Positions 9,817-56,171 of a stretch of 64,000 nt of DNA are shown in pieces. Origin of the DNA: Bacillota bacterium (GTDB lineage Bacteria > Bacillota > Clostridia > Lachnospirales > Lachnospiraceae). Position numbers and translations under genes: made by a program. The stretch spans positions 14,843 to 78,842 of the forward strand of contig JAEZZQ010000050.1 of assembly GCA_023442465.1 (NCBI GenBank), given 5' to 3'. Position 1 is the first letter of the stretch. The number at the start of each line of letters is the position of its first letter. The notes beneath the pieces were generated by a model. It made no database searches. It was not told the DNA's origin and saw only the letters and a list, made by a program, of their open reading frames with translations.

Positions 9817-9828
9817 GCGAATCGTTAA

Positions 9829-9962
9829 GGTTACTGTTCACACAGTAGATTAACACTTGCTGTTAAGCTACGTAAGAATGTGATGCAAGAGATGATTTCT
9901 GCTTCGCGAAGCGAATTTGAATGCAGAAATCGTGAGTTACTTTGAACGGAGTGAACAGTAAC
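9829..9962 (+). mobile_element. MITE-like repeat, family 1, copy 1 (terminal inverted repeats GTTACTGTTCAC / GTGAACAGTAAC)
   Basis: The element is about 133 bp and near-identical to the copies at 38546, 42731 and 56035. It fills the gap between the convergent ACP and VOC genes. Flanking 7-mers are TCGTTAA and GCGTTAG (5/7 match). Confidence 0.8.
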
Positions 9963-9965
9963 GCG

Positions 9966-10370
9966 TTAGGAGCGGACCTCCAGAAGCTCTATCATCCCGA
10001 GACTCGCGTTCATTAAAAAGGTCACGCGCATATTCTCCAGGGCAGGAGCTGGCGTGGGCATGTCGATGGCGGTATATCCGTTTTCGGTAAGGTATGCCAG
10101 GTCATTTTCGAAGTTGCGTGATTCGTAGCAAAGATGATAAGGCGTATTTTTATATTTTTTTAAAAGTCCCGCAACGACGGAGTCGGAACTGACCGGGGAG
10201 ACAAGCTCTACTACGTATCCATCCTTCTCCATAAAACAAATATTGATTTTGCGGTAATCATCATAGATGATATCCTGACGGAGCACATATCCAAGCTGTT
10301 GGAACTGTGCTGCTGCCGCATTTATTTTTTTCACTAAATATCCGATATGGTGTACTTTTAAATCTATCAT
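9966..10370 (-). CDS. VOC-family protein, methylmalonyl-CoA-epimerase/glyoxalase-like
   Basis: 134 aa with VHHIGYLV, ELVSP, YHLCYE and MIELLE segments that match the paired beta-alpha-beta-beta-beta metal-site pattern. An AGGAGG RBS is present. Confidence 0.75.
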   Translation of the reverse strand: MIDLKVHHIGYLVKKINAAAAQFQQLGYVLRQDIIYDDYRKINICFMEKDGYVVELVSPVSSDSVVAGLLKKYKNTPYHLCYESRNFENDLAYLTENGYTAIDMPTPAPALENMRVTFLMNASLGMIELLEVRS

Positions 10371-12084: not shown

Positions 12085-12121
12085 GGAAATGATTGTTACT
12101 GAGAACGGAGTGAACAGTAAC
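12085..12121 (+). repeat. Solo 3' hairpin module of repeat family 1 (GTTACTGAGAACGGAGTGAACAGTAAC)
   Basis: It is identical to the 3' end of the full copies and ends 32 nt upstream of ATG 12154. Confidence 0.7.
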
Positions 12122-27650: not shown

Positions 27651-28760
27651 ATGATCGTAGTTAAAATTTTAGGCATTATATTATGGATGTTTGTGCTTCC
27701 CTTTTGTATCGGGCTGATTCCCTTGCGGTGGATACCGAAGGAAAAGAAAAACATAGGAGTAGTGTTCATCGCCGGTTATGTCATTATGCTTCCGATGTGC
27801 TGGCTGGTAACCGTGCCTGCGATACTTCTTGTAAAATACGACAGCTTTCTTGTTATGGTACGCCTTTTTACTGTAGGTATGGCGATTGCGGCAGCAGCAG
27901 GCGTAGCTTTAAGCGCATGGGCTGTTAAGAAGAAACAGTGGGTATCCTTAAAACCGGCATTTCGGTGGGCTGATATTTCCATGGAAGAGAAGATAGAATG
28001 GTTCTTGTTTTTGGCACTCATTGCATTCCAGCTCTATAAAGCGTTTACTCTCACCTCCTTTGACGGAGATGATGCGGAATATGTGGCACAATCCCTTGTG
28101 ACTCAGCAGAGCAATACGATGTATCTGATTAAGCCGTATACAGGAGGGACGACCTCCCTGGACATCAGACATTCTCTGGCTGTGCTGCCTATATGGATTG
28201 CGTACGTGGGAAGAATGACGGGAATCCATACGACGATATTGGCGCATAGTGTCATTCCTTTTGTGTTTATCCCTCTGACCTATGTGGTTTACTTTGAAAT
28301 CGGCAAACAGCTTTTGCGTAAGAAGAAAGCGTTCTTGCCGGCATTTATGGTGTTTATGGCTCTTTTGCAGACATTCGGAAACGTATCCATATATACCAAT
28401 GAGACTTTTTTCCTAACGAGAACATGGCAGGGAAAATCTCTGGCGGCAAATTTCGTGCTTCCTCTTATCGTTTGCCTGCTGCTGTGGATATTCGATAAGG
28501 AGAATGAGTATAAGACACGAAAAGAGGAAAGCTTGGAAGAAAAGGAAAGCACCTTTGGCCTATGGCTCCTTTTATGGCTTGCAAATATGACAGCGGGCGT
28601 ATGTACCTCCATGGTGGTATTCCTCGGAGCGGTGATGATAGCAGTTATCGCGTTCTGGATGATGATAGCGGAGCGGAAATTCAGCGTGCTCATCAAGGCG
28701 GGAATCGTGTGCATACCTAATGTAGCATATATGATACTGTACTTGCTTTTGCACGTTTAA
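27651..28760 (+). CDS. Polytopic membrane protein (DUF6077-like), function unknown
   Basis: Hydrophobic 369-aa protein read from ATG 27651, with GGAG 9 nt upstream. The longer ORF from 27561 lacks an RBS. Confidence 0.55.
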   Translation: MIVVKILGIILWMFVLPFCIGLIPLRWIPKEKKNIGVVFIAGYVIMLPMCWLVTVPAILLVKYDSFLVMVRLFTVGMAIAAAAGVALSAWAVKKKQWVSLKPAFRWADISMEEKIEWFLFLALIAFQLYKAFTLTSFDGDDAEYVAQSLVTQQSNTMYLIKPYTGGTTSLDIRHSLAVLPIWIAYVGRMTGIHTTILAHSVIPFVFIPLTYVVYFEIGKQLLRKKKAFLPAFMVFMALLQTFGNVSIYTNETFFLTRTWQGKSLAANFVLPLIVCLLLWIFDKENEYKTRKEESLEEKESTFGLWLLLWLANMTAGVCTSMVVFLGAVMIAVIAFWMMIAERKFSVLIKAGIVCIPNVAYMILYLLLHV

Positions 28761-28761
28761 G

Positions 28762-28922
28762 ATTACTATAACAGTCATCAACACCGCGAGGGTGGGCGAA
28801 GCACACTTTTGTTTTAAGTGAAGGTCACAGAAAACCCGAGGTATACGCGCGCGAAACTATGCAGGATGAATAATTTCTGCGCATAAAAGGTTGCTATGAA
28901 GCCGTAAAGCTGAATAGTAACC
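28762..28922 (+). mobile_element. MITE-like repeat, family 2, with a perfect 7-bp target-site duplication GTTTAAG
   Basis: GTTTAAG occurs at 28755-28761 and 28923-28929. The element ends are ATTACTAT and ATAGTAACC. It has an internal GCGAAGCACACTTTTGT block and the 3' hairpin module. Confidence 0.8.
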
Positions 28923-28952
28923 GTTTAAGAATATAATAGGAGAACTTTTGGT

Positions 28953-29777: not shown

Positions 29778-29805
29778 AATAATGCGGAATGCATATTTTC
29801 TATGT

Positions 29806-29860
29806 ATCATGCGTTGCTGAGAACGGAGTGAACAGTAACAGCGAAAGGCTGAATAGGAAC
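29806..29860 (+). repeat. Solo 3' hairpin module of family 1, followed by a degenerate family-2 motif (AAGGCTGAATAGGAAC)
   Basis: ATCATGCGTTGCTGAGAACGGAGTGAACAGTAAC matches the 3' ends of the full copies. Confidence 0.7.
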
Positions 29861-37414: not shown

Positions 37415-38509
37415 ATGAAAACTTATCTGGTAACAGGCGGAGCAGGCTTTATCGGCTCCAATTACATTCATTACATGTTTAAAAAATATGGAAGCGATAT
37501 TAAGATTATCAATGTGGATGCGCTCACCTACGCAGGCAATCCCGAGAATCTGAAGGGGATAGAAAACAGGGACAATTACAAATTCATCAAGGCGGACATC
37601 TGCGATAAAGAAGCGATTTCTAAGATATTTGAAACGAATGATATCGATAGAGTTGTGCATTTTGCGGCGGAAAGCCATGTGGACAGAAGTATCCGTAATC
37701 CGGAGGTCTTCGTACAGACGAATGTTCTTGGAACCGCAGTGATGCTTAATTGTGCGAAGAGTGCCTGGGAGTTAGAAGACGGCAGCTTTAAGCCGGATAA
37801 GAAGTTTCTGCATGTATCCACGGACGAGGTATACGGTTCCCTGGAAGAGGAAGGCGAATATTTCTATGAGACTACGCCATACGATCCTCACAGCCCTTAT
37901 TCTGCCAGCAAGGCCAGTTCCGATATGCTGGTAAAGGCATATATGGATACCTATCATTTTCCTGCGAATATAACTAATTGCTCCAATAATTATGGACCTT
38001 ATCAGTTCCCGGAGAAATTGATTCCTCTCATCATCAACAATGCACTTCAGGGGAAAAAGCTTCCGGTATACGGAGACGGTAAGAATGTCAGGGACTGGTT
38101 GTATGTGGAAGATCATGCGAAAGCAATCGATATGGTTCAGGAAAAGGGAAGGCTTTTCGAAACCTATAATGTAGGCGGACACAATGAGAAGCAGAATATC
38201 GAAATCATTAATATTATTATAGAAACCTTGCAGGAGATGCTTCCTGAGAACGATCCGAGAAAGGAGCTCGTAAGCAAGGACTTGATTACCTATGTGGAAG
38301 ACAGAAAAGGCCATGACAGAAGATATGCCATCGCGCCGGACAAAATCAAAGCGGAAATAGGCTGGGAACCGGAGACTATGTTCAAGGAAGGCATCAGGCT
38401 GACAATCCAGTGGTTCTTTGAGAATGAGGAATGGATGAAGAATGTTACCAGCGGAGAATATCAGAAATATTATACAGATATGTACAGCACAGAGCAACTG
38501 GTGAAATAG
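37415..38509 (+). CDS. rfbB: dTDP-glucose 4,6-dehydratase
   Basis: VTGGAGFIGSN Rossmann motif, YSASKA catalytic YxxxK and a typical length of 364 aa. Confidence 0.95.
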   Translation: MKTYLVTGGAGFIGSNYIHYMFKKYGSDIKIINVDALTYAGNPENLKGIENRDNYKFIKADICDKEAISKIFETNDIDRVVHFAAESHVDRSIRNPEVFVQTNVLGTAVMLNCAKSAWELEDGSFKPDKKFLHVSTDEVYGSLEEEGEYFYETTPYDPHSPYSASKASSDMLVKAYMDTYHFPANITNCSNNYGPYQFPEKLIPLIINNALQGKKLPVYGDGKNVRDWLYVEDHAKAIDMVQEKGRLFETYNVGGHNEKQNIEIINIIIETLQEMLPENDPRKELVSKDLITYVEDRKGHDRRYAIAPDKIKAEIGWEPETMFKEGIRLTIQWFFENEEWMKNVTSGEYQKYYTDMYSTEQLVK

Positions 38510-38545
38510 TGGCTGTAAATAAGAACAAGTAAAATGCTATAATTC

Positions 38546-38679
38546 GGTTACTGTTCACACAGTAGCTTAACACTTGCTGTTAAGCTACGTAAGAACGTGA
38601 TGCAAGAGAGGATTTCTGCTTCGCGAAGCGAATTTAAATGCAGAAATCATGCGTTACTGAGAACGGAGTGAACAGTAAG
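38546..38679 (+). mobile_element. MITE-like repeat, family 1, copy 2, with a perfect 7-bp duplication ATAATTC
   Basis: ATAATTC occurs at 38539-38545 and 38680-38686. About nine mismatches to copy 1 by eye. Confidence 0.85.
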
Positions 38680-38690
38680 ATAATTCGGAT

Positions 38691-38725
38691 GGGAACGGTT
38701 TTAAAACGTTCCCATTTTACGTTTT
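38691..38725 (+). terminator. Terminator-like hairpin between rfbB and rfbA
   Basis: GGGAACG / CGTTCCC stem followed by ATTTTACGTTTT. Confidence 0.45.
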
Positions 38726-38750
38726 CAATCCAGATATTTTGTGATATACT
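38722..38750 (+). promoter_or_regulatory. Candidate promoter TTTTCA-17-TATACT with a TG extension, upstream of rfbA
   Basis: Hexamers are at 38722-38727 and 38745-38750, with TGA preceding the -10. Confidence 0.45.
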
Positions 38751-42719: not shown

Positions 42720-42730
42720 AAAGAAAATAT

Positions 42731-42881
42731 GGTTACTGTTCACACAGTAGCTTAACACTTGCTGTTAAGCTGCGTAAGAATATGATTCAAGAGATAATTT
42801 CTGCTTCGCGAAGCGAATTTAAATGCAAAAAGTTTGCATTGCAGAACATCATGCGTTACTGAGAACGGAATGAACAGTAAC
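42731..42881 (+). mobile_element. MITE-like repeat, family 1, copy 3 (about 150 bp with an internal insertion), with a perfect 7-bp duplication AAAATAT
   Basis: AAAATAT occurs at 42724-42730 and 42882-42888. The element sits between the permease and ATPase genes. Confidence 0.85.
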
Positions 42882-42914
42882 AAAATATTAGCGGTGCAAC
42901 GGAGAAACGGCTGA

Positions 42915-46497: not shown

Positions 46498-46825
46498 GCG
46501 AAACTGGTGGGGAGTGGAAATTTTATGTACAATTCGGGGAGGCTGTGTGAGCCTTTCTTCGGTGGATTTGGTTTCTGTTCCGGCGCTCGCGGCTGTGTTT
46601 TCTAAAGGAAACCGTGGATGTTGCGGGGGCGGACGGGCCGGCAGCAACGGACATCCATGTCCTATGCTGCCTAAACGCCGCATCCTTGCGGCGTTTTCCC
46701 TAGATATTGGGGTTCCCTTAAGAAAGCACAAGCCGCTCGCTGACGGAACAGAAACCAAACCACCGAAGAAAGGCTCGGTGAGGTTGTGAATTGTACATAA
46801 AATTGGCGAGGTTACTAGTTTCGCA
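46498..46825. repeat. Long imperfect palindrome (about 330 bp) with a GC-rich core and an internal terminator-like hairpin
   Basis: Paired arms are 46498-46507/46816-46825, 46518-46535/46788-46805 and 46549-46582/46744-46776 (33-34 bp, one indel). A looser pair is 46583-46613/46711-46740. The core hairpin is AAACGCCGC/GCGGCGTTT at 46673-46696. Confidence 0.85.
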
Positions 46826-54899: not shown

Positions 54900-55898
54900 A
54901 TGACAATAGACGTAAAAAGGATTAGGGCTGAGCATATGGAGTCGACAGTAGTAATACCTAATTATAACGGAATAAAGTATATGGACGGCTGCCTGAAAGC
55001 GCTCTATAAGGGAACGGCGGTTCCTAAGGTAATCGTGGTGGACAATGGTTCCTCCGACGAAAGTCTTAAGATTGTGGAGGAGAAATATCCGCAGGCACAG
55101 ATAATACGCTTTAAGAAGAACGAAGGCTTCAGTGCGGCAGTGAACGCGGGAATCAAGGCGGCGGTGACGGAATTTGTCATCCTGCTCAACAACGATACAA
55201 AGGTGGAGCCGCATTTCGTAGAAGCGCTGGAAGCGGCTATAAGAAAAAATGGGGATGCTTTTTCCGTCAGTGCCAAGATGTTGTCCATGAAAGAGCCGGA
55301 TCTGATCGATAGTGCAGGAGACCTGTACTGTGCTCTCGGCTGGGCGTTTTCTCTTGGAAAAGGAAAGGAAAAAGGCAGCTATGGCAAGGCGGCGGAAATC
55401 TTCGCTTCCTGCGCGGGAGCTGCTATTTATAAAAGGGAGGTCTTTGAGCAAATCGGCTATTTCGATGAAAACCACTTCGCCTATTTAGAGGACATAGACA
55501 TAGGATACCGGGCAAAGCTTTCGGGGTTTCGTAATTATTTTGCACCTGAGGCCGTGGTATATCATGCGGGCAGCGGATCAAGCGGTTCCAGATATAATGA
55601 ATTCAAGGTAAAGCTTTCTTCCAGGAACAGCATTTACCTGATATATAAAAACATGCCGTTACTGCAGATGTTCCTCAATCTGCCGTTCCTCGTGCCGGGC
55701 TTTTTAGTAAAACTTTTATTCTTTATGAAAAAGGGTATGGGAAAAACATATCTTTTCGGCTTGGCGGAGGGCTTTAAGCTGTCCTTCTCCGAAAGAGGAC
55801 GACAAAACAAGATGCGGTTTAAGGCAAAGAACTGGCGAAGGTATGTAGAAATCCAGTTGGAGCTTTGGATAAACATAATTCGAAGGGTAATGGGATAG
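54900..55898 (+). CDS. GT2 glycosyltransferase (rhamnosyltransferase-like)
   Basis: VVIPNYNGIKYM, VVDNGSSDES and LLNNDTKV motifs. Confidence 0.8.
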   Translation: MTIDVKRIRAEHMESTVVIPNYNGIKYMDGCLKALYKGTAVPKVIVVDNGSSDESLKIVEEKYPQAQIIRFKKNEGFSAAVNAGIKAAVTEFVILLNNDTKVEPHFVEALEAAIRKNGDAFSVSAKMLSMKEPDLIDSAGDLYCALGWAFSLGKGKEKGSYGKAAEIFASCAGAAIYKREVFEQIGYFDENHFAYLEDIDIGYRAKLSGFRNYFAPEAVVYHAGSGSSGSRYNEFKVKLSSRNSIYLIYKNMPLLQMFLNLPFLVPGFLVKLLFFMKKGMGKTYLFGLAEGFKLSFSERGRQNKMRFKAKNWRRYVEIQLELWINIIRRVMG

Positions 55899-56034
55899 TT
55901 TCTATTCACGCCTCTATTCCGCGAGGTGTTTTGTGCTGTTTTTGAACAAAATCCCGGGGTAGCCGGCGCCAAATTGCACGTTACATACAATTTGTATGCA
56001 TATTGTTGCTATGAACAGTAAAACTGTGAGTATC

Positions 56035-56171
56035 AGGTTATTTGTTCATACAGTAGCTTAACATTTACTGTTAAGCTGCGTAAGAATGTGATGCAAGAGA
56101 TGATTTCTGCTTCGCGGAGCGAATTGAAATGCAGAAATCATGCGTTGCTGGGAACGGAGTGAACAGTAACA
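56035..56171 (+). mobile_element. MITE-like repeat, family 1, copy 4 (more diverged)
   Basis: GGTTATTTGTTCATACAGTAGCTTAACA ... GGAGTGAACAGTAAC. No clear target-site duplication. Confidence 0.75.

Follow-up and report, generated by a model that had tools for sequence, protein, structure and literature searches.

An orphan MITE family with 8-bp target-site duplications in Kineothrix and other Lachnospiraceae, probably mobilised by an IS66-family transposase

Bacterial genomes contain short, structured and high-copy intergenic repeats, such as the Correia, RUP, BOX, ERIC and REP/BIME elements, which are co-transcribed with their neighbours and some of which have documented effects on mRNA. Roles in stabilising or processing mRNA have been proposed for REP/BIME, ERIC and Correia elements. 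Correia and RUP elements duplicate the dinucleotide TA and are related to other transposases. Among bacterial MITEs, Chunjie of Geobacter uraniireducens (Chen et al. 2008, cited in PMC10969869) has, as far as it is described there, inverted termini, direct repeats, dozens of full and many partial copies, and is tolerated inside operons. A 2024 review of prokaryotic MITEs mentions neither Lachnospiraceae MITEs nor IS66-derived MITEs. Within the IS66 family, ISDge4 of Deinococcus geothermalis, a member of the ISBst12 group, has the termini GTAACTGCTCAGCA and GTGACTACTCAGCA, an 8-bp direct repeat and observed transposition (PMC12898284), and in the classic IS66 elements there are three ORFs and the ends begin with GTAAGCG (PMC12888890).

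The element analysed here lies in a window of 64,000 nucleotides (contig C39, positions 14843-78842) of a gut Kineothrix genome (G000; Lachnospiraceae; 4.5 Mb, 43% G+C, 50 contigs). It is a bacterial MITE: short, non-coding, present in high copy number, bounded by inverted termini, flanked by a target-site duplication (TSD) of fixed length, and missing from exact empty sites in related genomes. These features, together with an insertion sequence (IS) of near-identical ends in a congener, support the MITE interpretation that a sequence-only reading of the window had proposed. To judge from its ends, the family most likely depends on a transposase of the IS66 family. It shares with Chunjie all of the features listed above, differing, as that source presents Chunjie, in host phylum and sequence, and Chunjie is larger, at 178-235 bp. 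It possesses both the inverted termini and the duplication that REP/BIME elements lack. Unlike the catalogued small structured repeats, it matches no Rfam family; in Rfam 15, no family over the window passed its gathering threshold as a relative of the element, and the region 38500-38730 returned chance-level matches alone at E<=10. No published description of this family was found in open-access full text on MITEs in Lachnospiraceae or on IS66-derived MITEs.

The focal copy of 133 bp occupies 38547-38679 on the + strand, in the rfbB/rfbA spacer, with the left end GTTACTGTTCAC and the right end GTGAACAGTAAG. Its TSD, ATAATTCG, stands on the left at 38539-38546 and is matched exactly on the right at 38680-38687, and the empty sites of the sister genomes hold a single 8-mer. 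The flanking genes had been named correctly, as an rfbB-like dehydratase and an rfbA-like nucleotidyl transferase at this copy, and a Wzm ABC-2 permease and a Wzt ATPase at another. The focal copy sits 3' of the rfbB-like stop codon (38509) and is followed by a terminator-like hairpin (~38692-38715), GGGAACGG..CGTTCCC and then a T-rich run (together ~38692-38720), and by a promoter-like site for rfbA (38722-38750). The location between rfbB and rfbA holds, but the copy is probably part of the rfbB 3' untranslated region and not a spacer of co-transcribed cistrons. The start of 'rfbA' given by the ORF finder is an ATG inside the element (38638); since the transferase domain starts only at residue 54 of that ORF, this start is an artefact of the insertion. 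Independently of the MITE, the C-terminal end of the rfbB-like gene (38470-38509) is 39 bp longer, and of other sequence, in G000 and G001 than in G041, G011 and G016.

Four copies of the MITE, all in one orientation, had been recognised in the window; this count and orientation (+ strand) are borne out, with the correction that the earlier limits took in one surplus 5' G. The 12-bp terminal inverted repeats are likewise present, though the right ends of the copies at 38547 and 42732 deviate slightly and the left end of the copy at 56037 is degenerate. Allowing up to one mismatch, we counted 10 occurrences of the 12-mer GTTACTGTTCAC in the window, where shuffled sequences predict 0.11. Most copies retain the ends GTTACTGTTCAC and GTGAACAGTAAC. 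An older 133-bp copy (9830-9962, + strand) has a TSD eroded to 6/8, reading TCGTTAAG at 9822-9829 and GCGTTAGG at 9963-9970. The copy at 42732-42881 (+ strand), in the Wzm/Wzt spacer, represents a 150-bp subfamily with an extra TGCAAA..TTTGCA hairpin; its right end is ATGAACAGTAAC and its TSD reads AAAATATG at 42724-42731 and AAAATATT at 42882-42889. The fourth copy (56037-56170, + strand; left end GTTATTTGTTCAT) has no duplication and lies inside a nest of elements that runs from 55898 to ~56181, has the borders ATGGGATA and ATGGAATA, and is missing in G016. Directly upstream of it in this nest is an element of a Blautia-type subfamily (CCGCGAGG / AAAATCCCG), which starts with GTTTCTATTCAC and extends over 55898-56023 on the + strand, its limits being approximate and set by eye.

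The window also holds reduced and related forms. These include a 27-bp remnant, GTTACTGAGAACGGAGTGAACAGTAAC (12095-12121, + strand), with a 7/8 duplication (AAATGATT, ACATGATT), and a 5'-truncated fragment of the last ~58 nt (29782-29839, + strand; nhmmer model positions 92-133), which is present in G041 and not in G016. A 'family 2' element of 160 bp, ATTACTATAACAGTC ... GCTGAATAGTAAC, occupies 28762-28921 on the + strand and is the sole full copy of its kind in G000. A module of ~30 nt within it, CACCGCGAGGGTGGGCGAAGCACACTTTTG (28784-28813; family 2 positions 23-52), has ~20 further copies in the genome outside full family 2, at 88-97% identity, and may be part of a further repeat family. 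A full-length match to TwoAYGGAY (RF01731) was found at 46582-46743 on the - strand of the window (83.7 bits against a gathering score of 43), within a palindrome of ~330 bp; this palindrome was rejected as a relative of the MITE, as its ends, ATTTTATGTACAATTC..., bear no relation to those of the MITE.

The length of the duplication had first been read as 7 bp. The quoted 7-mers exist, but each is the inner part of an 8-mer, and the true length is 8 bp; for family 2 as well, the flanking direct repeat is real and its length is 8 bp, being a perfect CGTTTAAG at both 28754-28761 and 28922-28929. A flank table of the 97 full copies in G000 places the duplications far above chance. The two flanks agree at 8/8 positions in 38 copies, at 7/8 in 22 and at 6/8 in 13, so that at least 7/8 is reached in 60 of the 97, compared with 0.23 expected at 7/8 under shuffled pairing. 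Per position, the left and right flanks are identical in 72-77 of the 97 copies from -1 to -8, and in 6 of the 97 at -9. The target is AT-rich, roughly AAAWTTTN, its first half being rich in A and its second half in T. Duplications are better preserved in copies nearer to the consensus. In other genera (113 loci, among the matches listed), the 8-bp duplication is perfect in 87 of 141 end pairs and reaches 7/8 in another 30, in a count where one element may appear once from each strand.

Comparison with sister genomes showed exact empty sites with a single 8-mer at four sites of the window. The focal site is filled in G000 and G001 and empty in G041 (GTCATTCG) and in G011 and G016 (ATATTTTT), with one 8-mer each. 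The 42732 site is filled by 150 bp in G000 and G001 and by 133 bp in G041, and is empty in G016, with a single AAAATATT; the family 2 site (28762) is filled in G000 and empty in G041 and G016. The 9830 site is filled in G000 and empty in G041, where it reads GCGTTAGG, and in G016 it holds an orthologous, 5'-deleted remnant. This insertion is old, because the remnant in G016 and the copy in G000 have the private variant GAGTTACTTTGAAC in common. G041 is nearer to G000 than G016 is, yet its 9830 site is clean, from which we infer a precise loss or an allele replacement in the G041 lineage. The MITE was inserted at different times as a Kineothrix clade diversified. At the 42732 site, the two variants at one position (150 bp at 42732-42881 in G000 and G001; 133 bp at L021:2263-2395 in G041) differ by a hairpin insert of 16-17 bp, which was either gained or lost in place, or exchanged by gene conversion between copies. 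Near the tyrS-like site 1, an unrelated palindromic insertion of ~190 bp, ATACAAATTTTATATTGTGCC ... GCACAATATAAAATTTGTAT, is present in G011 (L176:1767-1960) and G016 (L177) and not in G000.

A census with an nhmmer profile built from the window copies gave 167 matches in G000, comprising 97 full-length copies and 70 fragments. Among the full copies, 68 are of ~133 bp and 28 are of ~150 bp with the extra TGCAAA..TTTGCA hairpin; their divergence from the consensus is 0.8-29%, with a median of 4.5%. The consensus has stops in all 3 forward frames (by eye), and the MITE is non-coding. The first reading described the element as inserted inside polysaccharide operons; the family is not restricted to such loci, being dispersed genome-wide and over many Lachnospiraceae genera. 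High copy number is found in 5 of 28 Kineothrix genomes (G000, G001, G041, G016 and G011). Genomes were also sampled from 16 further families of the order, and none of them has it. The 3' end, AACGGAGTGAACAGTAAC, is present in at least 113 contigs in a scan of one genome per species. Among the matches listed, the hosts are Blautia (wexlerae, luti, faecis, difficilis and others), Dorea, Acetatifactor, Roseburia, Marvinbryantia, Lachnotalea, Anaerobium, Kineothrix and other Lachnospiraceae. The MITE therefore belongs to a superfamily spread over many genera of this family. Two 3'-end matches, L110 (a full copy) and L112, come from bins assigned to Prevotella sp. CAG:279 and Holdemanella biformis; mis-binning of Lachnospiraceae contigs is the most likely cause, rather than a true presence in these hosts. 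In G016, a third non-autonomous family of 338 bp has the same termini, GTTACTGTTCACTCC ... GTGAACAGTAACAACAGTAAC (L029:94-431 and L030; G016:C1:495993 and 3974682), together with a central palindrome and the duplication ATGTCAAT.

The copies decay along a recognisable path. Of the 70 fragments, 51 retain the 3' part only, 15 the 5' part only, and 4 are internal. A scan of G000 for [AG]TTA[CT]T ... A[AG]TAA[CT] pairs bounded by identical 8-mers returned 53 cases, against 1 with a reversed-motif control. Besides full copies, these were ten 27-bp elements of the form GTTACTGAGAACGGAGTGAACAGTAAC and one element each of 36, 106, 107, 114 and 117 bp. The shortened derivatives keep perfect duplications and have their junctions at GTTACTG or CTGTT, words found at the left end of the element and again in its interior. 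Six of the 27-bp remnants were compared with their sites in the sisters. Three of these sites are occupied in G041 or G001 by a full copy of 133 or 150 bp, identically placed and bounded by the same duplication; two are empty in the sisters, which are exactly 35 bp shorter there; and one remnant is common to G000, G001 and G041, its site being empty in G011 and G016. Several of the remnant sites have only one 8-mer in sister genomes. At least half of the tested remnants are therefore deletions in place between 7-bp direct repeats, and deletions between GTTACTG repeats account for the excess of 3'-only fragments. Copies thus shorten by deletion between short direct repeats, mostly the two GTTACTG words, to a 27-bp product that retains the duplication, and copies are now and then lost precisely. 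In G016, an 18-bp word, GTTACTGTTCACAGTAAC (L026:66-83; G016:C1:3785825), has both termini fused and no duplication, and could have arisen by extreme deletion or as the scar of an excision.

The source of mobility was sought through the termini. The first reading had found no transposase in the window, and this is confirmed; homologues of the candidate transposase described below are missing from the whole of G000. A search for a transposase gene bounded by the same termini gave nothing in G000, but in the congener G021 it led to an IS66-type element with near-identical termini. The first element of this type was exposed by pairing end-like words in the 3'-end loci. It measures 2211 bp (L059:3040-5250), has perfect 16-bp inverted repeats, GTTACTATTCACAGTC, and contains two ORFs, a coiled-coil ORF of 126 aa and an ORF of 523 aa whose protein matches PF03050 DDE_Tnp_IS66 (E 1.8e-11, 44 bits, cut-off 23). 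Its closest relative within Kineothrix, at 68% identity, is in G021 (L146:950-3158), with identical termini and flanked on both sides by the perfect 8-bp duplication AGGCATTT. In the candidate partner, a small coiled-coil ORF lies upstream of the transposase gene. The 525-aa protein of G021 matches NF033517 IS66 over model positions 1-385 of 387 (E 2.7e-41), and since the transposase scores 141.9 bits, below the NCBIfam curated IS66 cut-off of 180, it is a divergent member of IS66.

All eight IS66-type elements examined end in GTTACYATTCACAG, which agrees with the left end of the main MITE family at 11 of 12 positions and with the Blautia-type subfamily at 13 of 14 (MITE ends GTTACTGTTCACAC and GTTACTGTTCACAG). 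The similarity between MITE and IS is confined to the first ~12-14 nt. Terminal position 7 is A in every IS found and G in the main MITE family, so a closer parent may exist. The duplication has the same length, 8 bp, in the MITE and in the IS of G021, which is the one IS66-type element with both flanks readable and intact. In these respects the family resembles the ISBst12-like group of IS66, in which the TSD is 8 bp and the termini are of the type GT(A/T)ACTG(C/T)TCA, and its candidate partner encodes DDE_Tnp_IS66. It is unlike an ISBst12-like IS in being devoid of coding capacity, in its length of 133-150 bp, and in sharing only ~12-14 terminal bases. The candidate partner in turn differs from the classic IS66 elements, with their three ORFs and GTAAGCG ends (PMC12888890), by its two ORFs and its score under the NCBIfam IS66 cut-off.

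This candidate is scarce where the MITE is abundant. No homologue of the IS66-type transposase (E<=1e-3) was found in G000, G001, G041, G016 or G011, two of which are complete or near-complete assemblies, and the same search picked up relatives at 24-28% identity in other Kineothrix genomes. Within the genus, the IS66-type element is present only in G021 and G007, and a close homologue occurs in 5 of 401 sampled Lachnospiraceae genomes. The copies in the copy-rich genomes are therefore orphans. Among the pairs of end-like 12-mers in G000 that have duplications of at least 7/8 and lie no more than 8 kb apart, none is relevant as a parent. A family-agnostic scan of G000 (600-4500 bp, perfect 8-bp duplication, inverted ends of at least 13/16) gave no MITE-like element, a listing of ends in G016 gave no long element, and a search of a plasmid collection gave no match. 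Two loci that had been considered as parents were rejected, L082 as two separate copies around three genes and L038 as ordinary genes. In the G000 assembly, no repeats of more than 400 bp at 90% identity or above are present but a few fragments, and the shortest contig is at least 2.7 kb, which raises the possibility that the assembly lacks multi-copy insertion sequences. Sequences shared between contig ends belong to rRNA operons and IS3-like elements, none of which has a GTTACT end. Two of these IS3-like elements are collapsed from G000 (one at the C20 end and the C29 and C44 starts, the other at the C36 and C47 starts), with the ends TGATGTTGTATC... and TGATATTGTCAA....

Several transposase families make 8-bp duplications, and one of these others (IS6/IS26, ISL3, IS256 or IS1595) could move the MITE, in which case its likeness to IS66-type ends would be coincidental. 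The copy-rich genomes, with no IS66-type transposase, are compatible with such an origin, and the MITE termini loosely resemble the ends of the IS6 family, GGTTCTGTTGCAAAGT. An origin from IS6, the one of these families that was searched for individually, was rejected, as none of the five copy-rich genomes encodes an IS6 transposase (PF13610). Coincidence is also hard to reconcile with eight independent IS66-type elements that match 11-13 of the first 12-14 terminal bases of the MITE families, or with the 8-bp duplication of the IS66-type element whose flanks are both intact. Furthermore, neither the scan of G000 for 600-4500-bp elements nor the collapsed repeats at its contig ends revealed an alternative parent. 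Another transposase family is, on this evidence, improbable.

We consider it likely, with a probability of roughly 80%, that this is an orphan MITE family which was moved in trans by an IS66-family transposase, and whose source has been lost or is transient. Termini and duplication length suggest a mechanism in which the MITE would be moved in trans by a DDE transposase that belongs to the IS66 family, has the two-ORF arrangement and is similar to the ISBst12 group. The enzyme would be encoded by an IS of its own, 2.2 kb in length, ending in GTTACYATTCACAG and likewise making 8-bp duplications. It would bind the shared termini, cut the target with an 8-bp stagger and join the MITE in, and a lost or transient source would leave orphan copies behind.

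The copies show a bias in orientation and placement with respect to genes. Between same-strand gene pairs in G000, 72 copies lie along the genes and 21 against them (77% along), and the loci of other genera show 35 against 11 among the matches listed. The 13 along and 3 against among the youngest copies place the origin of this bias at insertion or soon after. Copies are also far commoner between divergent than between convergent genes, with 44 against 10 in G000 and 34 against 4 in the other loci, among the matches listed. Of 147 copies in G000, 104 are oriented as the leading strand; among the six in lagging-strand gene pairs, five lie along the genes and one against them.

Both strands of the element fold well beyond shuffled sequences (z = -5.4 and -6.4). 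With a covariance model, 40 copies belonging to at least 3 subfamilies were detected in 100 loci (among the matches listed). On the cross-genus alignment, 92.4% of cells are paired against 74.9% in shuffles, both sides have changed in 33 of 46 pairs, and the covariation score is 0.383, where shuffles give 0.129 and slid controls no more than 0.064. These values come from an alignment fitted to the structure of the model and count inherited changes repeatedly. For the terminal helix, the paired fraction across genera is 96.8% of cells. In hairpin B, the stem sequences change but the two-part form of the stem and the C-GNA-G loop persist; in G000 its loops are GAA in 30 copies, GGA in 30, AGA in 14 and GTA in 8. 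On the sense strand, hairpins A and B contain 79 G:T pairs against 31 A:C pairs. Neither strand of the focal copy has a terminator-like site, and transcription is therefore expected to read through the element.

Strong subterminal hairpins and agreement with the leading strand would also be expected of a REP-like or IS200/IS605-type palindrome, spread via single-stranded DNA by a tyrosine (HUH) transposase, and such a route would account for an orientation bias related to replication. However, elements of that kind have neither TSDs nor terminal inverted repeats, and the MITE has an exact 8-bp TSD and 12-bp inverted termini. The empty sites exclude that the 8-bp repeats are a mere preferred target, and the lagging-strand copies follow genes and not replication. 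We regard this route as very improbable indeed.

The orientation bias and the conserved hairpins are not predicted by a plain selfish-element model, and may reflect either a tolerance of transcribed hairpins or a use for them. A use by the host would mean that the transposon has been adopted, its sense-transcribed hairpins stabilising or processing mRNA, and selection keeping its structure and orientation. The alignment of copies with genes, including those in lagging-strand pairs, agrees with this, and so do the covariation across genera, the C-GNA-G loop that persists as stems change, the sense-strand excess of G:T over A:C, and the lack of a terminator across the focal copy and its flanks. 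Much of this can be read otherwise. The hairpins may equally serve transposition, and the covariation, drawn from a structure-fitted alignment in which inherited changes are counted many times, would then be selection among elements and not host benefit. The G:T excess may stem from one or two subfamily variants, and the bias in the youngest copies fits an insertion bias equally well. Copies are also readily lost or collapsed to 27 bp, against any strong need at single sites. Adoption by the host is a tentative reading, and on balance an unlikely one. It is similarly doubtful, though conceivable, that the transposon doubles as a portable module of RNA (or single-stranded DNA) structure, in which the two-part C-GNA-G hairpin, maintained through compensatory changes in different Lachnospiraceae genera, and the 3:1 alignment with transcription would mark a strand-specific role. 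If this were true, a stabiliser or processing site for mRNA, for example, would have been seeded in hundreds of operons of abundant gut commensals such as Blautia, Dorea, Roseburia and Kineothrix.

As a mobile element probably dependent on an IS66-family transposase, the MITE is of an ordinary kind; its breadth in gut commensals, its orphan state, its decay series, and its signals of orientation and structure are worth recording. Its copies break short-read assemblies, six contig ends of G000 lying within them, and can create false ORF starts in annotation, as at rfbA. The insertion polymorphism supplies ready markers of strains and lineages. The link to IS66 offers a simple substrate for the study of a poorly understood transposition mechanism. 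Finally, the orientation bias and the covarying hairpins raise the testable question of whether such elements are tolerated in the transcripts of these bacteria, or used.
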